A stretch of 10,585 nucleotides of DNA from a virus. Its lineage: Duplodnaviria; Heunggongvirae; Uroviricota; Caudoviricetes. The DNA is taken from the IMG/VR virus record IMGVR_UViG_2698536559_000013. One strand, written 5' to 3'. Under the pieces are notes generated by a model that worked only from the letters and a program-made list of their open reading frames with translations, had not been told where the DNA came from and ran no database searches. A program made the translations under genes and the position numbers. Positions 1 to 10,036 of the stretch are shown piece by piece. Each line of letters opens with the position of its first letter. The first letter of the stretch is position 1.

Positions 1-21
1 AATACGGTGCTCCGTTGACGC

Positions 22-3000
22 TTACGTTTTATCAACCACCAACGCACCATATTTAGACGGCCCAGATGTCTTAACATTCAATGCTCGACCACTTAATGCT
101 TCGCCTGACTTACTTTTCAACAGTAACGTAAATACCAGATTGTTGGTATCGCTCACTACAGCCGAAGATGCAGATGATGTGATCTCCAACACAGCCCCCT
201 TCACATCCGTTACGGCATCAATATTCTGGCTTGCGGTTATGCGTTTCCCATCCAGAACATACTCGGCCTGAATTGTGTACTGGCCTGATTTCGTTGCAGT
301 GAACTGCGTTGTTGCCTGTCCATGAGCATCCAGTTGCAGATTACTACTGGTCAATGATGCTCCCGTCGATGGTGTAATCGTTAAATCCACCTCGCCTGTA
401 AACGCATTGTTATTCGCATCAACCAACTGAATGTTTACTGTTGCGTTTTCACTGCCATCGGCCACAATCTCCTGTTTTGATACACTCATAGTAAGTTCTG
501 CAGAAGCAACATCGGGCACAAAAGTTAACTTAACGCTGCCAGATTCCACGCTATGGGAACCGTCAGTCACCCGTGCAGTCACCGTGTACTCACCAGCTTT
601 CACCGTTGTAAGCGGAACAGAAACATGCCCTGTTGAATCAGTCACGATATTTGTTGGTACAGATAATCCTTCAGATGAGGTGATGAGCTGAATCTTTTGC
701 CCATTGACCGACGCATTCGTATTTGTCAGCTGCACATCTAATACCGCTGCATCCTTACCATTAGCAGGAATATTGGAAATTAAACTACTGCTTTCAGGCG
801 TCAGTGACAGTGAAGCTCCGGTCATATTTGATGCAAAGGTCACTGTTAACTCAGTAGACATCTGAGAACCAGCATGAGCTGTAATCACGTAAGACCCCGG
901 AGTGGAGCTTATTAACGCAAAAATAGCATTACCATTTTCGTCAGTTGAAACAGCATGTTCACCACCAACTTGAGTTATCCCTGCTGGTAAAGACAATGTG
1001 ACAGCATAACCAGGAACAACATTGCCGAAACGGTCCGCAAGGCTTACAGTTACCATATTTCTCTGTTTTCCATCAGCCAATGCATTATTTTGGCTGGCTT
1101 CAAACTGAGAGAATGTAACCTGCTGCCGGTCCTCAATAAAGGTGATTTCTTTCTTAACACCTGAGAAATCATGACTATCAGATTTAACACCGATAGTAAT
1201 CTTACCAGCTCGTTTTGAAGTTACTGTCGCGCTATAGACACCGTCTTTTTCCGTTACAGTCCCAAACTCGACTCCTTCTGCCTGGTTAAGAGCATAAAAG
1301 CTCAGAGTGTTATCACCAGTGATTGCATTTCCTTGTGAATCCTTCACTGCCAGTTGTAGATTGATATTGTAACCAACTACCTGTTCTGCTGGTGCAGCGG
1401 TTAAAACAGCACTGACCTCAGAATCAGGTTCTGTTGCTGCTGTTTGCTTAATACTGAGAGTAAATGTTTTTCCCTGAACTTTTGCAGTTACACGTACCGT
1501 ACCAGCCTGCGAACCAGCAGTCAGAACAGAGTGATATACCCCAGCAGAGATTTCCTCTACCGCGCCTAATGACGGAGCAGTTACCGTTTCACGCTGTCGA
1601 GCACTATTGCTATCTGCTGTAAATTCCACTGACATTTCAATGTCATCAGCCAGTCCGGTTAATGCCTTACCGTTACTATCTTTCAGGCTTAATACTATCG
1701 GATAAGTGGATTGGCTATCAGCAGAGATCGTCGGCGACGAATCTCCATCCAGTGTAAAAGATGAATCCGCTGTCGAGACACCACTATTATTAACGCTGAT
1801 ATTCATAACGGCATAGTTGGAAACATTGCCTCTGTTATCCTGGACTGTGGCTCCAACATTCCACGAATTTACATCTCCGCTTTTATAAGCCGGTAAAGTG
1901 ATCTGCCATGATGTGCCATTTCCACTGATCTTACCGCCAGCCGCAGTGAATGCACTATCATTCCACTGTACAGACTTGATACCACCACTAGCATTGTTGA
2001 TTGTCAGTGTTACAGGGATGATTGATTCCCCCTCCCCCTGAACAGACTCTGGTAAGCTGATTTTCAGTGCATGCTTCTTCTTGTACTCCAGAACAATGTT
2101 GTTATTTCGTTCAACAAAATCATAACGCCGGTTCTGGACTTCTCGCATAACAGCAACATTGTCACTGCTAAGCTGTTCAGCAAGGGAAACGCCCGGGCGA
2201 TAATTAAACTCAACACCAAAGGTTGTATCGTGAACGTTGCTCTGTCCTTGCTTATGCTGTGCAGAAAACTTAATCAGAGGAACTGGTGTATAAGAAATTC
2301 CCCCAGTAACTGCGTAAGGGTTTTCCTGAAGATTATCGCTTCCAAATAACCCGACATTTTTACCATAATATTTTTCAAACTGAATGGATGCCCCTAATTG
2401 CGGATAAGCAGGTAGCCATCCTTCAGCAGAAAAATCCCAGCCATTTGCGGGTCTTTCCAGATAATCATCAATATCCCGACTGTTCTTCCAGTCAGACAAA
2501 CCAAAATAGGTATTTACACCAAGCCTGAAATAATCTCTCCAGTACTCAACCCCAAAACCTGCACGAGAGTGACTGCGACTTAAATCGTAATCATAGAAAA
2601 CATTCGCACCCAACATTGCGTTATCAGGAGTGAAATGACGAATCCCCAAACCAATATTGGTCTGATTTCGGTCATCAGTACGATGTAGTGATGTCTGACT
2701 GAATAGCACATAATCCTGAGTATCCAGCCATGGATATAAAAAGTCGAATGATGAATCCTTCAAGGAAAAAGAATCATCGACATTAAGCTTGATGCGCGCA
2801 TTGCCATATTGTTGCAACCAGTCGACGACCTCTTTTGTCGCCTGAGTTGATAAAGTATTTACAGCAAAACTACTTGCATTATTATTTGCTAGGCTCTGAC
2901 CTGCACTTGCTGCAAATGAGGCCACTTTATTTGCATGCTCATCGCTGGCATAAGTTTGCGTAACATCTTTATTACCAGATGATGCAAAACTGTTTGCTGG

Positions 3001-3102
3001 GATCAAAGAAAGAGAAACTGGAGATAATATCTGGGTAACAATTACCGACCATGTAATCGCGCCAGATGCAGTTTTTTTTAACTTTTTATTCACAGTGGTC
3101 AT
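22..3102 (-). CDS. Inverse autotransporter adhesin (intimin/invasin family), 1026 aa, apparently full length
   Basis: Long uninterrupted minus-strand ORF (stop TAA at 22-24, ATG at 3100-3102). N-terminus is hydrophobic and signal-peptide-like, followed by a sequence typical of the inverse-autotransporter beta-barrel domain (e.g. YDYDLSRSHSRAGFGVEYWRDYFRLGVNTYF, FGVEFNYRPGV). The rest is Ser/Thr/Val/Gly-rich, consistent with bacterial Ig-like (Big) repeat passenger domains. Family call is from recalled sequence features; domain boundaries were not computed. Confidence 0.85.
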   Translation of the reverse strand: MTTVNKKLKKTASGAITWSVIVTQILSPVSLSLIPANSFASSGNKDVTQTYASDEHANKVASFAASAGQSLANNNASSFAVNTLSTQATKEVVDWLQQYGNARIKLNVDDSFSLKDSSFDFLYPWLDTQDYVLFSQTSLHRTDDRNQTNIGLGIRHFTPDNAMLGANVFYDYDLSRSHSRAGFGVEYWRDYFRLGVNTYFGLSDWKNSRDIDDYLERPANGWDFSAEGWLPAYPQLGASIQFEKYYGKNVGLFGSDNLQENPYAVTGGISYTPVPLIKFSAQHKQGQSNVHDTTFGVEFNYRPGVSLAEQLSSDNVAVMREVQNRRYDFVERNNNIVLEYKKKHALKISLPESVQGEGESIIPVTLTINNASGGIKSVQWNDSAFTAAGGKISGNGTSWQITLPAYKSGDVNSWNVGATVQDNRGNVSNYAVMNISVNNSGVSTADSSFTLDGDSSPTISADSQSTYPIVLSLKDSNGKALTGLADDIEMSVEFTADSNSARQRETVTAPSLGAVEEISAGVYHSVLTAGSQAGTVRVTAKVQGKTFTLSIKQTAATEPDSEVSAVLTAAPAEQVVGYNINLQLAVKDSQGNAITGDNTLSFYALNQAEGVEFGTVTEKDGVYSATVTSKRAGKITIGVKSDSHDFSGVKKEITFIEDRQQVTFSQFEASQNNALADGKQRNMVTVSLADRFGNVVPGYAVTLSLPAGITQVGGEHAVSTDENGNAIFALISSTPGSYVITAHAGSQMSTELTVTFASNMTGASLSLTPESSSLISNIPANGKDAAVLDVQLTNTNASVNGQKIQLITSSEGLSVPTNIVTDSTGHVSVPLTTVKAGEYTVTARVTDGSHSVESGSVKLTFVPDVASAELTMSVSKQEIVADGSENATVNIQLVDANNNAFTGEVDLTITPSTGASLTSSNLQLDAHGQATTQFTATKSGQYTIQAEYVLDGKRITASQNIDAVTDVKGAVLEITSSASSAVVSDTNNLVFTLLLKSKSGEALSGRALNVKTSGPSKYGALVVDKT

Positions 3103-3351
3103 AGTTCAATCAACGTTATGAATATAATGAAAAAAATAACTGGTATGACAAGAGGCGCGAAATATACAGCTCGTTACAAAAAAATCAACTCAAAAATAAA
3201 ATAAAATCTCTGCATAAACTTTATGGCTAAATGATTTCACAACAATGGAAGAAAAATTTTGTTGCTCACGCAATCAATCATTTCGGGCGTTACAACTAGT
3301 CCTAGATTATATTCGCTAGGTATACTTTATTTTTAAGCTAATACTTTAGCT
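3103..3351 (-). promoter_or_regulatory. AT-rich upstream region of the adhesin gene; putative promoter/regulatory region
   Basis: About 250 bp of strongly AT-rich non-coding sequence between the stop of the P fragment and the adhesin start codon. No specific -35/-10 elements were confidently identified. Confidence 0.3.
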
Positions 3352-3912
3352 CTATTTCATCGCTCCTTTCAGCCCGAACTTAGCTTTGATTTCTGCGATC
3401 TTCGCCAGAGCCTGTGCACGATTTAGAGGTCTACCGCCCATGACAGGAAGTTGTTTTACTGGTTCAGGTATAGCCTCACCACGGTTAATTCGTGCGGTCA
3501 TACAGGACAGTTCATCGGCAGCCTTGCGCCGTAATTCCGCGTCAGTCAACGCATTGGCCCGCATGTTCTGATACAGGTTGGTAACCAGCCAGTAGTGCGC
3601 GTTTGATTTCCACGGATAAGACTCTGCATCCAGATACAGCCCGCGCTTCCGGCAATACTCGTAAACCATATCAACCAGCTCGCTGGCGTTTGGCAGTCCG
3701 GCGGTAACGGATGCTTCTTCCCGGCACCAGGCAACAAACTGCCCGGGTGATGGCAGGAATGGTCGATTCTGCCGACGGGCGACACGCACTCCGGCGCTCA
3801 CCTGTTCCATTGTGGTGATCCCGTTTTCCCGGAAAGCCAGAACCCACTGGCGGCGGATTTCGTTCAGTTCGTTCTGGTCCCGGTTAGCCAGGCTCGCCGG
3901 GAAAGTTGCCAG
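3352..3912 (-). pseudogene. P: C-terminal fragment of lambda replication protein P (about residues 48-233); first in-frame Met is at 3810, giving a 152-aa ORF
   Basis: Minus-strand translation reads LATFPASLANRDQNELNEIRRQWVLAFRENGITTMEQVSAGVRVARRQNRPFLPSPGQFVAWCREEASVTAGLP...RAQALAKIAEIKAKFGLKGAMK, which I recognise as near-identical to the C-terminal part of lambda P. In-frame sequence above about 3913 (RANHGYKCVRCRDADI) no longer matches P. The extreme C-terminus (GAMK) and downstream sequence also differ from lambda, where ren would follow. Confidence 0.85.
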
Positions 3913-3997
3913 TATATCTGCATCGCGGCATCGAACGCACTTATACCCGTGATTTGCTCGTGGAAGTTTTTCTCGACGGACGCGGTAACGGCCTGAA
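3913..3997. other. Junction segment of unknown origin between the P fragment and the gam-proximal lambda-like sequence
   Basis: P homology ends near 3913, and sequence I recognise as the region just upstream of lambda gam (tcactaa...cctgttttcctaatcagcccggcatttcgcgggcgatattttcacagc) begins near 3998. The roughly 85 bp between matches neither as far as I can recall. Confidence 0.4.
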
Positions 3998-4079
3998 TCA
4001 CTAATCTCCTTTCCTGTTTTCCTAATCAGCCCGGCATTTCGCGGGCGATATTTTCACAGCCATTTTCAGGAGTTCAGCC

Positions 4080-4376
4080 ATGAACGCTTATTACATTCAG
4101 GATCGTCTTGAGGCTCAGAGCTGGGCGCGTCACTACCAGCAGATCGCCCGTGAAGAGAAAGAGGCAGAACTGGCAGACGACATGGAAAAAGGCCTGCCCC
4201 AGCACCTGTTTGAATCGCTATGCATCGATCATTTGCAACGTCACGGGGCCAGCAAAAAAGCCATTACCCGTGCGTTTGATGACGATGTTGAGTTTCAGGA
4301 GCGCATGGCAGAACACATCCGGTACATGGTTGAAACCATTGCTCACCACCAGGTTGATATTGATTCAGAGGTATAA
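4080..4376 (+). CDS. gam: Gam (short GamS form, 98 aa), RecBCD inhibitor
   Basis: ORF translation [98 protein letters not shown] matches lambda Gam from its internal Met onward, with two substitutions relative to my recollection. Strong SD caggag sits 7 nt upstream of the ATG. Confidence 0.9.
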
Positions 4377-4381
4377 AACGA

Positions 4382-4911
4382 ATGAGTACTGCACTCGCAA
4401 CGCTGGCAGGGAAGCTGGCTGAACGTGTCGGCATGGATTCTGTCGACCCACAGGAACTGATCACCACTCTTCGCCAGACGGCATTTAAAGGTGATGCCAG
4501 CGATGCGCAGTTCATCGAAAAACCCGCGAAGGCAGAGAAATCACCGGACCGTGGCAGTCGCATCCCAAACGAATGTTGCGGCATAAAGCCATGATTCAGT
4601 GTGCCCGTCTGGCCTTCGGATTTGCTGGTATCTATGACAAGGATGAAGCCGAGCGCATTGTCGAAAATACTGCATACACTGCGGAACGTCAGCCGGAACG
4701 CGACATCACTCCGGTTAACGATGAAACCATGCAGGAGATTAACACTCTGCTGATCGCCCTGGATAAAACATGGGATGACGACTTATTGCCGCTCTGTTCC
4801 CAGATATTTCGCCGCGACATTCGCGCATCGTCAGAACTGACACAGGCCGAAGCAGTGAAAGCTCTTGGATTCCTGAAACAGAAAGCCACTGAGCAGAAGG
4901 TGGCAGCATGA
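4382..4911 (+). pseudogene. bet: bet (Red-beta single-strand annealing protein) disrupted by an internal out-of-frame deletion
   Basis: N-terminal 45 residues (MSTALATLAGKLAERVGMDSVDPQELITTLRQTAFKGDASDAQFI) match lambda Bet, then the frame reads non-Bet sequence to a stop at 4592-4594. The Bet C-terminal part (PKRMLRHKAMIQCARLAFGFAGIYDKDEAERIVENTAYTAERQPERD...[11 protein letters not shown]) continues in the +1 frame to 4911. The breakpoint lies near 4515-4520 (ttcatcg/aaaaacccgcgaagg). Confidence 0.85.
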
Positions 4912-5588
4912 CACCGGACATTATCCTGCAGCGTACCGGGATCGACGTGAGAGCTGTCGAACAGGGGGATGATGCATGGCACAAATTACGGCTCGGCGTC
5001 ATCACCGCTTCAGAAGTTCATAACGTGATAGCAAAGCCCCGATCAGGAAAGAAGTGGCCTGACATGAAAATGTCCTACTTCCACACCCTGCTGGCTGAGG
5101 TTTGCACCGGTGTGGCTCCGGAAGTTAATGCTAAGGCGCTGGCCTGGGGAAAACAGTACGAGAACGACGCCAGAACTCTGTTTGAATTCACTTCCGGCGT
5201 GAATGTTACTGAATCCCCGATCATCTATCGCGACGAAAGTATGCGCACCGCCTGCTCTCCCGATGGTTTATGCAGTGACGGCAATGGCCTTGAGCTGAAA
5301 TGCCCGTTTACCTCCCGGGATTTCATGAAGTTCCGGCTCGGTGGTTTCGAGGCCATAAAGTCGGCTTACATGGCCCAGGTGCAGTACAGCATGTGGGTGA
5401 CGCGAAAAGATGCCTGGTACTTTGCCAACTATGACCCGCGTATGAAGCGTGAAGGACTGCATTATGTCGTGGTTGAGCGGGATGAAAAGTACATGGCGAG
5501 TTTTGACGAGATGGTGCCGGAGTTCATCGAAAAAATGGACGAGGCACTGGCTGAAATTGGTTTTGTATTTGGGGAGCAATGGCGATGA
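4908..5588 (+). CDS. exo: Lambda-type exonuclease (Red-alpha, Exo), 226 aa
   Basis: Full-length ORF whose translation ([65 protein letters not shown]...[15 protein letters not shown]) matches lambda Exo with a few substitutions. ATGA start/stop overlap with bet, as in lambda. Confidence 0.95.
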
Positions 5589-5767
5589 AGCATCCTCACG
5601 ATAATATCCGGGTAGGCGCGATCACTTTCGTCTACTCCGTTACAAAGCGAGGCTGGGTATTTCCCGGCCTTTCTGTTATCCGAAATCCCCTGAAAGCACA
5701 GCGGCTGGCTGAGGAGATAAATAATAAACGGGGAGCTGTATGCACAAAGCATCTCCCGTTGAGTTAA
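5585..5767 (+). CDS. orf60a: Lambda orf60a-like small protein (60 aa from the ATG overlapping the exo stop; an upstream ATG at 5579 would give 62 aa)
   Basis: Translation [57 protein letters not shown]... matches my recollection of lambda orf60a. ATGA overlap with the exo stop. Confidence 0.7.
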
Positions 5768-5931
5768 GAACGAGTATCGAGATGGCACATAGCCTCGCTC
5801 AAATTGGAGTCAGGTTTGTGCCAATACCAGTAGAAACAGACGAAGAATTTCATACGTTAGCCGCATCCCTTTCACAAAAGCTGGAAATGATGGTGGCGAA
5901 AGCAGAAGCAGATGAGAGAGACCAGGTATGA
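5740..5931 (+). CDS. orf63: Lambda orf63-like small protein (63 aa)
   Basis: ORF of exactly 63 codons ([63 protein letters not shown]) in the position of orf63 of the lambda early-left operon. Overlaps the 3' end of orf60a in another frame. Confidence 0.7.
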   Translation: MHKASPVELRTSIEMAHSLAQIGVRFVPIPVETDEEFHTLAASLSQKLEMMVAKAEADERDQV

Positions 5932-6011
5932 CAACCACTGAATGCATTTTTCTGGCAGCGGTCTTCATATTCTGTGTGCTTATGCTTGCCGACATGGGAC
6001 TTGTTCAATGA
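5928..6011 (+). CDS. Candidate 27-aa hydrophobic small protein (MTTTECIFLAAVFIFCVLMLADMGLVQ)
   Basis: Below the ORF-track size cutoff. Its ATG overlaps the orf63 stop as ATGA (5928-5931) and its stop overlaps the orf61 start as ATGA (6008-6011). The core is strongly hydrophobic, consistent with a single transmembrane helix. Confidence 0.4.
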   Translation: MTTTECIFLAAVFIFCVLMLADMGLVQ

Positions 6012-6223
6012 CACCTCAGCAAGAAAACGCCCTTCGCAGCATTGCCCATCTGGCTAATTATGAAATCAAAAAAGCCAGACAGCAGTTTCCGGATAAAAAC
6101 GTCGATGACATTTGCCGTAGCGTACTGAAGAAGCACCGCGAAACGGTAACGCTGATGGGATTCACACCGACTCATTTAAGCCTGGCGATCGGCATGTTAA
6201 ACGGCGTCTTTAAGGAACGGTGA
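6008..6223 (+). CDS. orf61: Lambda orf61-like small protein (71 aa from this ATG)
   Basis: Translation MTPQQENALRSIAHLANYEIKKARQQFPDKNVDDICRSVLKKHRETVTLMGFTPTHLSLAIGMLNGVFKER; position and sequence are consistent with lambda orf61. The track ORF starts at an upstream ATG (5942), but the ATGA-coupled start at 6008 is more plausible. Confidence 0.65.
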   Translation: MTPQQENALRSIAHLANYEIKKARQQFPDKNVDDICRSVLKKHRETVTLMGFTPTHLSLAIGMLNGVFKER

Positions 6224-6225
6224 GC

Positions 6226-6315
6226 ATGAAAAACAAAATCATCATGGAGCTACAGGCTCCTTTTTTATTATTCGCATTCACCCTCAAGCGTATTAACCAA
6301 CAATTCAGGGATTAA
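6226..6315 (+). CDS. Candidate 29-aa small ORF (MKNKIIMELQAPFLLFAFTLKRINQQFRD)
   Basis: Short ORF filling the gap between orf61 and orf73, with aagga about 9 nt upstream of the ATG. No homology recognised; could be non-coding spacer. Confidence 0.2.
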   Translation: MKNKIIMELQAPFLLFAFTLKRINQQFRD

Positions 6316-6321
6316 TGAAAG

Positions 6322-6543
6322 ATGGCAGACATCATTGATTCAGCATCAGAAATTGAAGAATTACAGCGCAACACAGCAATAAAAATGCGCCGCCTGAACC
6401 ACCAGGCTATATCTGCCACTCATTGTTGTGAGTGTGGCGATCCGATAGATGAACGAAGACGTCTGGCCGTTCAGGGTTGTCGGACTTGTGCAAGTTGCCA
6501 GGAAGATCTGGAGCTTATCAGTAAACAGAGAGGTTCGAAGTGA
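6322..6543 (+). CDS. orf73: TraR/DksA-family C4 zinc-finger protein (lambda orf73-like), 73 aa
   Basis: 73-aa ORF with two Cys pairs (CCECGDP...CRTCASC) typical of the TraR/DksA zinc finger. Position matches lambda orf73. Confidence 0.8.
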   Translation: MADIIDSASEIEELQRNTAIKMRRLNHQAISATHCCECGDPIDERRRLAVQGCRTCASCQEDLELISKQRGSK

Positions 6544-7088
6544 GCGAAATTAACTCTCAGGCACTGCGTGAAGCGGCAGAGCAGGCAATGCATGACGACT
6601 GGGGATTTGATGCGGACCTTTTCCATGAGCTGGTAACACCATCGATTGTGCTGGCGCTGCTGGATGAACGGGAATCCCAAAACAAGCGTATTGCAGAACT
6701 GGAGAAAAGCGAAGAGCAACTCATTAACGAGCGTGACCATGCTGAGTCTGCTTTAGATGATATGTACTTTGCAGCAACCGGTAACAGGCCGGAGTGGAGC
6801 AACTGGTTCGGCTTTTCAGATGCTGTCGATGCCGTGGTTGACAGAATTGCTGATTTAGAAGCTAAACAATGCATTGAAGAGATGAGTAAACAAAGTTGCG
6901 AAGCTCGGGAGCGTGATTTGTTTGAATCATGGGTAATGCATTCAATTTGTATTTCCAAATCGACGCTTGAAGGATTGCGCACCGAAACTGGATACCGTAA
7001 CGCGACCTTATCAGGAACAGACTTCAACCGCATGTGGGAACAATGGAAATCTATCCGCGCTGCTGGTATTCGCATCAAAGGAGACTGA
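6540..7088 (+). CDS. ea22: Ea22-like protein, 182 aa (GTG start)
   Basis: 182-codon ORF whose N-terminus MSEINSQALREAAEQAMHDDWGFDADLFHELVTPSIVL matches my recollection of lambda Ea22. GTG start overlaps the orf73 stop (GTGA). Central region is coiled-coil-like and charged. Confidence 0.8.
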   Translation: MSEINSQALREAAEQAMHDDWGFDADLFHELVTPSIVLALLDERESQNKRIAELEKSEEQLINERDHAESALDDMYFAATGNRPEWSNWFGFSDAVDAVVDRIADLEAKQCIEEMSKQSCEARERDLFESWVMHSICISKSTLEGLRTETGYRNATLSGTDFNRMWEQWKSIRAAGIRIKGD

Positions 7089-7089
7089 T

Positions 7090-7299
7090 ATGGCTATTGC
7101 CGCAAGTTATACCATGCATCTCTATTGTGATTGTCGCCAGTGTACGGAAGGTGTATATCCAGTGCCAGACTTCGGTGAGTATATCGGTACGTCATGGTCT
7201 GGTTGTGCAAAAGAGGCCCGTAAAGATGGGTGGCGAATAAGCAAAGACAAAACACGTACTTTTGCGCCCGGGCATAAAGTTTTGAGGATTAACACATGA
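7090..7299 (+). CDS. ea8.5: Ea8.5-like Cys-rich small protein (69 aa from the ATG at 7090)
   Basis: ORF with the Cys motif HLYCDCRQCTEG...SGCAKEARKDGW in the position of lambda ea8.5. SD aaggag immediately upstream of the 7090 ATG. The track's longer version (from 6967) overlaps ea22 out of frame and is less likely. Confidence 0.7.
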   Translation: MAIAASYTMHLYCDCRQCTEGVYPVPDFGEYIGTSWSGCAKEARKDGWRISKDKTRTFAPGHKVLRINT

Positions 7300-8078
7300 C
7301 CACTATTACCAAAGAACGTATTGAATTGTTCATTAAAAATCCGCTTGAAAACGGGCTTACTCGTGGCGAACAAATGGAACTGGCACGAATTGCACTGGCA
7401 TCACTGGAACGCGAACAGATTCGCCACGAGCATGCCAAATGGTCTGACTCCACATTTGGCTGCGTTGGCCCCATTGGTCCACTGAAACACCTCTCAAAAG
7501 AGGCACTGGAAGCCGCAGCCGAACCAGACGATCTTAGCGAGTGGGCTGATATGCAGTTTCTGTTGTGGGATGCACAACGCCGTGCTGGCATCAGCGATGC
7601 TGAAATTAACGTTGCTATGGAAGATAAATTGAAGATCAACATGGAGCGCCAGTGGCCTGAGCCAAAAGATGGTGAGCCTCGCTTGCACATTAAAGAACCC
7701 GGCAACTCTCCGGTAATTCCGGATGGTTTATCCACGGTATGCGCTGAGGCTTATCAGGTTGTAGGAGTTATGGCAGATGCGCTTGGTGTATTCGGTGATG
7801 CAGCAGTACAGAAAGTTCTGGATAACCTGTCACAGCAAAAACTTGTTCACAGAGATGTGCTGCCGTTCTCGCTTCCGGTAACTCCGGATAGTTGGATAAG
7901 CTGTAGTGAGCGAATGCCGAACGACGCGCAGTGGTGCGTAGTGAACACAGAATACGGGTATTACGCGCAATGCTGGTCTGAAGGTCAAGGGTGGCTTGGT
8001 GATGATATCAGCATCCCTGAATGCGATGTAATCAATTGGATGCCACTACCAGAACCGCCGCAGGAGGTGAATCAATGA
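7296..8078 (+). CDS. Phage accessory protein with an N-terminal MazG-like (DUF550, dATP/dGTP pyrophosphohydrolase-type) domain and a C-terminal DUF551-like Cys/Trp-rich domain, 260 aa
   Basis: ATGA overlap with the ea8.5 stop; SD gagga 7 nt upstream. The N-terminal half carries acidic helix motifs (KEALEAAAEPDDLSEWADMQFLLWDAQRRAG) resembling all-alpha NTP pyrophosphohydrolases. The C-terminal half (WISCSERMPNDAQWCVVNTEYGYYAQCWSEGQGWLGDDISIPECDVINWMPLPEPP) resembles DUF551. Domain calls are from memory of motifs, not a profile search. Confidence 0.75.
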   Translation: MTTITKERIELFIKNPLENGLTRGEQMELARIALASLEREQIRHEHAKWSDSTFGCVGPIGPLKHLSKEALEAAAEPDDLSEWADMQFLLWDAQRRAGISDAEINVAMEDKLKINMERQWPEPKDGEPRLHIKEPGNSPVIPDGLSTVCAEAYQVVGVMADALGVFGDAAVQKVLDNLSQQKLVHRDVLPFSLPVTPDSWISCSERMPNDAQWCVVNTEYGYYAQCWSEGQGWLGDDISIPECDVINWMPLPEPPQEVNQ

Positions 8079-8158
8079 GCTGGCCTGAAGCATTCGCAAC
8101 GGTAGGAATTGCAATGGCGGTAGCACTGGTTTTGTATTCAATTTGTCGCTGGGGATAA
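8075..8158 (+). CDS. Candidate 27-aa membrane peptide (MSWPEAFATVGIAMAVALVLYSICRWG)
   Basis: ATGA overlap with the stop of the 260-aa gene; SD-like caggaggtga 5-14 nt upstream. Hydrophobic core consistent with one transmembrane helix. Below the ORF-track cutoff. Confidence 0.4.
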   Translation: MSWPEAFATVGIAMAVALVLYSICRWG

Positions 8159-8279
8159 CGATGATGCTCATGCGGAAATCATCAAAAAAATGGAACTGCT
8201 AACATGATTTAGGTGGGAGCCTGGAAGATGGCTCCACATATCAACATAGATTATTTCAGGATTCCATATTTTAACTAAT

Positions 8280-9164
8280 CTAAGTTCGACTATTTGGGGC
8301 ATTGATATGCTGTAAATGATGCTTAAGCCAATTTCCAGCCGCGCCTGGTGGCGATTTTTTATTCCAAAGCAGATCGATAGAAATTGCCTTTGGCCAGCCA
8401 GGTACGTCGAGCTGAACCAGCGGTTTTTCTGTTGCAAACTCCTCAACCAGAGCACAGGGCAGAGAGCACCAGCCAAATCCCTGTACGGCCATACTGAGTA
8501 ACAACAAATAGTTAGGTGCAGACCAAACCGGTCCACGGGCAATCATCTCCCGGTTATCGATATAAGTATTAAGACGAAGTTCTCGCCATGAATGAAGTTG
8601 TTCCCGCTGGATTGTTTTTTCTGCAGACAGTGGATGTGACGCCGAAACATAAATGCCCATCCACGCTTGCATCGGTAAACGGGTTGAGCCAATATCGGTG
8701 GGGTAGTGTTCCCGAGACTCAATTAAGCCGATCTGCGCTCGTTCTTTTTGCAAAAGATCGATGACATCGACATCCTCACCAATTAAAACCTCTAACTCAG
8801 TATGTGGAAACTGACTATCAAACTGCACCATGATGTCTTCTAATAAGTCAGGGTGTAGGGTATCGGAAAGCACAAACGTCAGACGAGCTTCAGTCTCTCC
8901 GGCAAGCGAAACCGCCACCTCCTCAAGACGTTCACTGGCTGACAAAATCGCATGAACGTAACTCAATACTTTCTTTCCTTCCTCTGTCAGCACAGGTTCT
9001 CGCGAAGAGCGATCGAATAATGATATACCAAGATCGACCTCAAGATTGGCAATTGACGTACTGACTGCGGACTGACTTTTGCGTAATCTTCGTGCCGCAG
9101 CAGAAAAGGAGCCACAGGAAACCGCTTCAACAAATGTACTTAACGCTTCAAGTGAGTAACGCAT
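8280..9164 (-). CDS. LysR-family transcriptional regulator, 294 aa
   Basis: N-terminal HTH typical of LysR-type regulators (LEALSTFVEAVSCGSFSAAARRLRKSQSAVSTSIANLEVDLGISLFDRSSREPVLTEEG) followed by a co-inducer-binding-type domain. Transcribed divergently from the adjacent transporter gene. Confidence 0.9.
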   Translation of the reverse strand: MRYSLEALSTFVEAVSCGSFSAAARRLRKSQSAVSTSIANLEVDLGISLFDRSSREPVLTEEGKKVLSYVHAILSASERLEEVAVSLAGETEARLTFVLSDTLHPDLLEDIMVQFDSQFPHTELEVLIGEDVDVIDLLQKERAQIGLIESREHYPTDIGSTRLPMQAWMGIYVSASHPLSAEKTIQREQLHSWRELRLNTYIDNREMIARGPVWSAPNYLLLLSMAVQGFGWCSLPCALVEEFATEKPLVQLDVPGWPKAISIDLLWNKKSPPGAAGNWLKHHLQHINAPNSRT

Positions 9165-9267
9165 AATCTATCAATTTTTTCGATGGTATCTATCTTTTAT
9201 ATATCACATAAATCGATAAAAATCTCACAACTCCATAACGCGGTCGAAACTGTAAGAAAGGTAAGTT
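9165..9267. promoter_or_regulatory. Divergent intergenic control region between the LysR gene and the PACE transporter gene
   Basis: 103-bp AT-rich spacer between divergent start codons. Contains an imperfect inverted repeat, tttttcgat (9176-9184) and atcgataaaaa (9213-9223), as might serve a LysR-type operator. No promoter elements were verified. Confidence 0.4.
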
Positions 9268-9726
9268 ATGCAACATAATGCGATTCAACGCAGATCGTTA
9301 CTTGAGCGTATTTTTCACGCTATTTGCTTTGAAGGAATTGCCACTGCGATTCTGGCCCCCACCACAGCATGGTTAATGCAGCGAACTATACTCGAAATGG
9401 GCGGGATGACTATCTTGTTGGCTTCAACTGCAATGATCTGGAATATCATCTATAACATGCTATTTGATCGCTACTGGCCTGCTCATCAGGTAAAACGAAC
9501 TGCAAAAGTTCGTGCATTCCATGCTTTGGGCTTTGAAAGTGGATTTATCGCGATCGGCGTCATTATGGTGTCCTGGATTCTGAGCGTCAGTCTGTTACAG
9601 GCTTTTACACTAGAGATAGGATTCTTCCTTTTCTTTCTACCATATACCATGTTCTACAATTGGGCCTATGACAGCTTACGTTTACGTGTTGTGAAACAGC
9701 ATCAACAACGTATGCTTGCCAGATAA
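9268..9726 (+). CDS. PACE-family (AceI-like) small efflux transporter, 152 aa
   Basis: Two tandem repeats each beginning with the R-x-x-h-A-x-x-F-E motif (ERIFHAICFEG and VRAFHALGFESG), plus WNxxYNxxFD-like motifs (MIWNIIYNMLFD, MFYNWAYD) and four predicted hydrophobic helices. Divergent LysR partner, as in aceR-aceI. Confidence 0.8.
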   Translation: MQHNAIQRRSLLERIFHAICFEGIATAILAPTTAWLMQRTILEMGGMTILLASTAMIWNIIYNMLFDRYWPAHQVKRTAKVRAFHALGFESGFIAIGVIMVSWILSVSLLQAFTLEIGFFLFFLPYTMFYNWAYDSLRLRVVKQHQQRMLAR

Positions 9727-9868: not shown

Positions 9869-10036
9869 ATGCACTTCCGAGTCACAGGAGAATGGAATGG
9901 AGAGCCATTCAACAGGGTTATCGAAACAGAGAACATCAACGACTGCTATGACCACTGGATAATATGGGCGCAGATAGCACATGCAGACATAACCAATATT
10001 CGAATTGAAGAACTGAAAGAACACCAAGCCGCCTGA
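9869..10036 (+). CDS. Candidate 55-aa protein of unknown function (MHFRVTGEWNGEPFNRVIETENINDCYDHWIIWAQIAHADITNIRIEELKEHQAA)
   Basis: Below the track cutoff. SD gggga 6 nt upstream of the ATG; in-frame stop immediately upstream; followed directly by a terminator hairpin. No family recognised. Confidence 0.45.
   Translation: MHFRVTGEWNGEPFNRVIETENINDCYDHWIIWAQIAHADITNIRIEELKEHQAA

Follow-up and report, generated by a model that had tools for sequence, protein, structure and literature searches.

Does a TraR/DksA-type regulator that is stranded in a prophage remnant act on its host? This question is raised by orf73, a small gene in the 10,585-nucleotide stretch of viral DNA analyzed here (IMG/VR record IMGVR_UViG_2698536559_000013; hereafter, the window). 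More generally, the question is whether the copies of orf73 left in defective lambdoid prophages can be expressed without the phage promoter pL, for example from the predicted promoter p1, and whether they affect ribosome synthesis or stress tolerance. If such stranded copies were expressed and had these effects, many E. coli strains would possess an extra, ppGpp-independent layer of growth control. An earlier note on this DNA had raised the possibility that the gene was retained through co-option by the host. Our assessment is different. With a probability of about 0.78, the orf73 gene of the window is the orthologue of lambda orf73 and a silent or weakly expressed passenger in a decaying lambdoid remnant, with no use to the host.

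The gene occupies positions 6322..6543 on the plus strand. Its reading frame is uninterrupted, with 73 codons from the ATG at 6322 to the TGA at 6541-6543 and neither a frameshift nor an internal stop codon, and its translation is MADIIDSASEIEELQRNTAIKMRRLNHQAISATHCCECGDPIDERRRLAVQGCRTCASCQEDLELISKQRGSK. The earlier note had described this product as a 73-residue TraR/DksA zinc-finger protein and had pointed to a profile search for the C4 domain as the check. This search returned a significant match: Pfam PF01258 (zf-dskA_traR) scores 35.8 bits over residues 33-64 and so clears its gathering score (24.9), with E = 7.7e-09. PHROG 54, 'DksA-like zinc-finger protein', covers residues 1-71 with E = 2e-25. 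The zinc ligands are arranged as C35-x2-C38-x17-C56-x2-C59, i.e., with the canonical DksA/TraR spacing, and align with C37/C40/C58/C61 of TraR. That is, the description of the protein as a four-Cys zinc finger is right for the ligands but not for the total, which is six (Cys 35, 36, 38, 53, 56 and 59), as in lambda Orf73. When PDB sequences were searched with phmmer, the best match was YbiI (2kgo, 2.9e-05, residues 29-65); F-plasmid TraR was also matched (5w1s, 8.4e-05, and 6n57, ~1e-04), and its alignment spans residues 1-64, which is near full length.

The alignment to TraR also locates the elements through which proteins of this type contact RNA polymerase (RNAP). Codons 3-8 (6328..6345, plus strand) encode DIIDSA, a DxxDxA motif aligned to TraR D3/D6/A8, which would reach the region of the RNAP active site. 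Codons 35-59 (6424..6498, plus strand) encode the predicted CxxC-N17-CxxC zinc finger, which encloses the residues E44..R46R47L48. These are the counterpart of E46..R48R49K50 in TraR, with R46/R47 corresponding to TraR R48/R49. The C-terminal segment is acidic (E61, D62 and E64); in the TraR subfamily, an acidic residue of the C-terminal helix contacts betaSi1. A single-sequence AlphaFold2 model, whose confidence is low (pLDDT 58.5), has a helix/globule/helix layout, with an N-terminal helix at residues 5-30 and a C-terminal helix at 56-70. The NCBIfam model TIGR02419 (C4_traR_proteo) gives window Orf73 55.7 bits, under its cutoff of 59.7; for comparison, F TraR scores 80.5 and lambda Orf73 54.7. 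Because the experimentally validated lambda protein also falls short, and indeed scores lower still, the shortfall is a property of the model threshold, and we rejected it as an argument against membership. Judged by its sequence, window Orf73 is a member of the DksA/TraR C4 zinc-finger family and of its TraR subfamily. The antisense ORF at 6471-6740 (minus strand) and the other mechanically called ORFs that overlap orf73 have no family support and were set aside; the plus-strand reading explains the region. An Rfam scan of the whole window found no known RNA family, and there is therefore no alternative, non-coding reading of the region.

Window Orf73 and phage lambda Orf73 are identical at 72 of 73 residues, the exception being position 49, which is Ala here and Val in lambda; at the DNA level, the two genes are 97.7% identical. 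The lambda gene lies at NC_001416 complement(30392..30613), an interval that is without annotation in RefSeq lambda and yet holds the 73-residue ORF. The gene order exo-orf60a-orf63-orf61-orf73-ea22 is common to both. By homology, then, orf73 of the window is the orthologue of lambda orf73. The A49 and V49 proteins each occur on at least 1000 public contigs, so V49A is a common natural allele, and RefSeq already lists the exact window protein, encoded at the identical locus of E. coli 377323_2f, under the accession WP_000763363.1 and the name 'TraR/DksA family transcriptional regulator'. Among 5426 complete E. coli genomes, orf73 is matched in 3308 (at 80% coverage or more) to 3316, or ~61%; the copy number per genome has a median of 1 and reaches 6. 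It is also present in 181 phage records, including those of lambda-like and Stx phages. The family, the way it works and the very same protein have thus already been described and annotated, most E. coli genomes carry a copy, and nothing sets the orf73 of the window apart from thousands of annotated copies.

The likely activity of the protein can be read from the experiments of Gopalkrishnan et al. (mBio 2022, PMC9239242) on lambda Orf73 (the V49 allele). The purified protein binds RNAP and inhibits rRNA and r-protein promoters without ppGpp, and lambda Orf73 complements a dksA null on minimal medium. Activation of the host promoters tested was weak or absent, possibly owing to the two extra Cys residues, and the substitutions D3A/D6A lowered activity. 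Phage yield rose ~4-fold with Orf73 and host growth was slowed; with Orf73 supplied through pL by a defective prophage in single copy, plating efficiency was reduced ~10^4-fold. In TraR, contacts with the rim helices and beta'Si3 involve R48 and R49 (PMC9239242), and an ExxRL variant of this motif has been described (PMC8614690). The mechanism that the earlier note had named, binding in the RNAP secondary channel with reprogramming of transcription, is borne out by these published experiments on a protein that differs by one residue.

Window Orf73 keeps D3/D6/A8, the four ligand Cys, the two extra Cys, R46/R47 within E44..R47L48, and the acidic C-terminal segment. From these intact motifs and the 72/73 identity, we infer that it works as lambda Orf73 and F TraR do. 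Residue A49 adjoins E44..R46R47L48, the beta'Si3-contact motif; the V49A change is conservative, and the two alleles may be equivalent in function. The protein, ~73 residues long and presumably built as a small Zn(Cys4) globule between two terminal helices, would enter the secondary channel of E. coli RNAP. There, the DxxDxA tip would reach the active-site region and R46/R47 would touch the rim helices and beta'Si3, and the kinetics of the open complex would be altered allosterically. In an active phage, pL drives transcription of orf73 early in the lytic cycle, and the gene raises burst size.

Comparison with known systems places the window gene closest to lambda, with a different genomic setting. 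Lambda Orf73 has the same length, the same six Cys, DxxDxA and ExxRL, and lambda also has the GTGA overlap between orf73 and ea22 and an upstream hairpin with a T-run. Unlike its lambda counterpart, window orf73 belongs to a remnant from which pL and the remaining control region have gone, and it adjoins an ea22 with a different C-terminus. F-plasmid TraR (PDB 5W1S, 6N57) resembles window Orf73 in size and architecture, with 34% identity over 62 residues, and shares DxxDxA at 3-8, CxxC-N17-CxxC, and the RR pair at the rim-helix/beta'Si3 contact; it acts without ppGpp, as does lambda Orf73. Window Orf73, unlike F TraR, has two extra Cys (at TraR positions 38 and 55), and it is encoded by a phage gene rather than a gene of a conjugative plasmid. 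The two characterized proteins also differ in activation: F TraR activates tra and amino-acid promoters, whereas lambda Orf73 gave weak activation, or none, of the host promoters tested and no activation of lambda promoters. E. coli DksA and YbiI share the C4 zinc-finger domain PF01258. In contrast to DksA (151 residues), window Orf73 has only 73 residues, and neither the coiled coil nor the ppGpp-binding residues; and in contrast to both, which are core-genome genes, window orf73 lies in prophage DNA, in a relic found in 7 of 5426 genomes. Another phage homologue, TraR_VP882 of vibriophage VP882 (Beggs & Bassler preprint 2026), has an RNAP-binding motif that is needed for host growth arrest, and this arrest is reversible; TraR_VP882 acts together with QisA, to which it is complexed, and is countered by an inhibitor of its own, QtiQ, whereas no such partners of window Orf73 were noticed.

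Around orf73 lies a lambdoid leftward (pL) operon, with all of its genes on the plus strand: gam (4080-4376), bet (4382-4911), exo (4908-5588), orf60a (DUF1317; 5579-5767), orf63 (DUF1382; 5740-5931), orf61 (5942-6223; 93 residues in its long form, matching PHROG 303 over its full length), orf73, and an ea22-like gene (6540..7088; PF13935, 49 bits). Window positions 3998-4517 correspond to lambda 33193-32675 at 98.5% identity, and 4519-6674 to lambda 32417-30261 at 97.0%. The GTG start of the ea22-like gene overlaps the orf73 stop codon (GTGA), and by this arrangement the gene is translationally coupled to orf73, as in lambda; its N-terminal ~55 codons match lambda ea22, and the remainder is mosaic. 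As for orf61, laboratory lambda has an extra A in the A-run near window position 6069, which cuts its orf61 to 61 residues and leaves a 60-residue ORF downstream; this difference agrees with the report that lambda Orf61 appears truncated relative to Stx phages (PMC8614690).

Upstream of this operon, the control region is gone. A junction at 3914..3915 joins a 5'-truncated replication gene P, on the minus strand, to a 5'-truncated kil, and was defined by alignment to a fuller relative, the prophage L005 integrated at icd in strain A3 (CP028771). Window 3300-3914 matches L005 15632-16246 (P, minus strand), and window 3915-4400 matches L005 19743-20228, from inside kil into gam. Relative to L005, 3.5 kb are missing, comprising the P N-terminus, the O-like, ydaT-like, cro-like and XRE repressor genes, and the pL region; the first 39 codons of kil are also missing. 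Consistently, the Pfam Phage_lambda_P match in the window begins at profile position 46, and lambda 33194 to 39720 has no counterpart in the relic. The view that the gene lies in a prophage remnant deprived of its own regulatory circuitry is thus upheld, as the deletion took the pL region along with the repressor genes and the O-like gene, and also the N-terminus of P and the 5' end of kil.

In E. coli 377323_2f (CP039404), the relic (locus L001) lies between yagU and thrW-proA, with IS3 copies and an integrase at its flanks, and its annotation lacks repressor, N, Q, lysis and structural genes altogether. Among the 5426 complete E. coli genomes, only 7 share this exact P'/kil' junction, and they fall into two sublineages. 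In all seven, gam, bet and exo are intact. In the window, a frameshifting deletion of 257 bp at 4517/4519 (lambda 32418-32674; L001 16493-16749) leaves bet as two ORFs. None of the seven complete relic genomes shares this deletion, and the window therefore represents a slightly more decayed relative. The relic is still decaying: bet is deleted in the window, and ea22 is truncated in the relic locus L004.

How, then, might orf73 be transcribed? Its normal promoter, pL, has been deleted, no antiterminator is left, and two terminator-like hairpins remain upstream on the plus strand. One of these, t1 (5640..5681; -18.5 kcal/mol, z = -2.5), is a strong hairpin inside orf60a, with a 9-bp stem at 5649-5671 that is identical to lambda. 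We take the hairpin at 5649-5671 to be, probably, lambda tL3; pKD46 carries lambda 31088-33241, 'including tL3'. In the literature, tL3 is a lambda terminator that is used as an insulator. The other hairpin, t2 (6246..6271; centroid -8.6 kcal/mol), reads GGAGCU-ACA-GGCUCC followed by U6AUUAUU. Its 6-bp GC stem (6246-6260) lies 50 nt 5' of orf73 and is kept in lambda. At the base of this stem, the window has T at 6248 where lambda has G, possibly reducing a 7-bp stem to 6 bp. Both hairpins were predicted, as t1 and t2, by Bloch et al. 2014 (PMC4195576), who saw t2 as the cause of the reduced orf73/ea22 mRNA levels in lambda after mitomycin induction.

The same study predicted with BPROM a sigma-70 promoter, p1, which in the window would occupy 6239..6271 on the plus strand: -35 TCATCA, 18 nt, and -10 TTTTATTAT (PMC4195576). 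This pattern is found exactly, and once, in the window, with both boxes intact. The hexamers are weak, scoring below 9/12 in a consensus scan. The predicted promoter p1 and the terminator-like hairpin t2 overlap within the same 33 bp, 6239-6271 (plus strand). A consensus promoter scan of the plus strand from 3300 to 8300 yielded no candidate at 9/12 or better, and a relaxed scan of the plus strand over the 2.5 kb from the deletion junction to orf73 yielded eight 8/12 matches, no better than background. In phage Phi24B, orf73 and ea22 mRNA stood above that of the other exo-xis genes after H2O2 induction (PMC4195576), a response that hints at pL-independent transcription of the two genes. With pL deleted, and with t1 and t2 standing between any upstream transcription and orf73, the gene is most probably silent or weakly expressed in the relic. 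Moreover, strong constitutive expression of Orf73 would be counter-selected, because expression from pL cuts plating efficiency ~10^4-fold. The survival of orf73 beside a truncated kil fits a gene without strong expression, since strong Orf73 expression inhibits growth.

The persistence of an intact orf73 in the relic may be explained in part by recombination. The two sublineages were compared over L001 16000-18900 and L004 10000-12900 (window ~4000-6700). Across P' and the inverse-autotransporter gene, they show ~7 differences in 4.5 kb (~0.1%); across gam-orf73, they diverge by 2.5-3%, i.e., ~20-30 times as much as in the flanking relic DNA. This contrast suggests that the gam-orf73 segment was replaced through recombination with another lambdoid prophage. 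Within orf73, seven nucleotide changes separate the sublineages, six of them synonymous and one altering an amino acid. This pattern fits purifying selection, perhaps acting in the phage phase; because the segment appears to have been replaced, the changes can reflect selection in phages, not in the relic.

Nor is orf73 distinguished from its neighbors: orf60a, orf63, orf61 and exo are as intact, and have no obvious host role. A domesticated gene would be fixed in the host lineage and better preserved than its neighbors, whereas the relic is confined to 7 of 5426 genomes and the neighbors are equally intact. A literature search for homologues of TraR/DksA in cryptic prophages that act on the host returned genome surveys only. 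The step from retention to co-option, as proposed in the earlier note, is therefore not borne out, given that the relic is rare and decaying, that the gam-orf73 patch is recombinational, that orf73 is no better kept than the genes beside it, and that the normal promoter and the antiterminator are gone with t1 and t2 lying upstream. Nothing in the window argues for expression of the stranded orf73 as a modulator of host growth.

We thus favor the following account. The gene would be a passenger in a recently formed and still-decaying lambdoid remnant at the thrW/proA site, in which a deletion took pL, the repressor and the surrounding control region. It would have been kept since there has been little time to lose it, and since it may have been refreshed by recombination with lambdoid prophages, rather than for any use to the host. 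The main rival holds that orf73 of the relic is transcribed from a promoter of its own (e.g., p1), perhaps under oxidative or other stress, and acts as a ppGpp-independent brake on ribosome synthesis that helps the host. The intact protein with all functional motifs, the conservation of both predicted p1 boxes, the preponderance of synonymous changes (6 of 7) between sublineages, the rise of Phi24B orf73/ea22 mRNA above that of upstream genes after H2O2, and the reversible growth arrest by the TraR-type protein of VP882 as a precedent are all in keeping with this idea. We nevertheless consider it unlikely: p1 is a software prediction with hexamers below 9/12 and overlaps a terminator hairpin, the relic is present in 7 of 5426 genomes only, the gam-orf73 segment looks recombinationally replaced, neighbors without a plausible host role are equally preserved, and in 2015C-4136CT1, the relic-bearing genome among the matches listed, a second orf73 match shows that the relic gene is not the sole copy. 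The fuller version, in which orf73 and the coupled ea22-like gene are transcribed together from the predicted p1, maybe upon stress, and constitute a domesticated ppGpp-independent growth brake that has outlived its phage, appears very unlikely.

Selection could instead act on the neighborhood, with the host keeping gam-bet-exo (Red) for recombination and orf73 hitch-hiking along. The integrity of the three genes in 7/7 complete relic genomes speaks for this scenario, to which we assign very little probability, as the frameshifting deletion of 257 bp has destroyed bet in the window, the promoter of the block is gone, and the relic is rare. Alternatively, orf73 might be functionless in situ and serve as a substrate for recombination, to be rescued into, or overwritten by, lambdoid phages. 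The excess divergence of gam-orf73 (~20-30 times that of the flanks), the 97-98% identity of this segment to lambda and many Stx phages, and the one to six copies of orf73 per genome (median 1) would all be expected for such a reservoir of alleles; this proposal, however, describes evolutionary dynamics without a selected function and is compatible with the passenger account, and as a separate explanation it receives little probability. Lastly, the notion of a chance ORF, or a pseudogene that merely resembles a zinc finger, has a negligible probability in view of the Pfam and PHROG matches (E = 7.7e-09 and 2e-25), the identity at 72 of 73 positions to an experimentally characterized protein, and the lack of any frameshift or stop.

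The window carries several other genes. On the minus strand, positions 1-3102 hold a large cargo gene for an inverse autotransporter (intimin/invasin-like), located between P and the nin region. Its ORF has a stop at 22-24 and encodes 1026 residues in the window, 1183 in L001 and 1302 in L005; window bases 1-25 are unmatched in L001, which marks a breakpoint or rearrangement at 25/26. At 8280-9726, where ea8.5 and xis normally lie, a LysR-family regulator (minus strand) diverges from a transporter of the PACE/BTP chlorhexidine-efflux type (plus strand), and the two look like a regulator-transporter cargo pair. A 260-residue ORF at 7296-8078 (plus strand) has a dATP/dGTP pyrophosphohydrolase domain (PF04447) and a C-terminal DUF551; RefSeq splits this region on L001 into a partial hypothetical protein and a shorter CDS. 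Finally, a 55-residue ORF at 9869-10036 (plus strand) matches PHROG 676, and because its segment is 95% identical to lambda 29106-29360, it is a homologue of lambda orf55 (lambdap35). Lambda Orf55 has been modelled as a possible T7 Gp2-like modulator of RNAP (PMC8614690); if it truly is one, the relic would encode, besides Orf73, another small protein putatively directed at RNAP.
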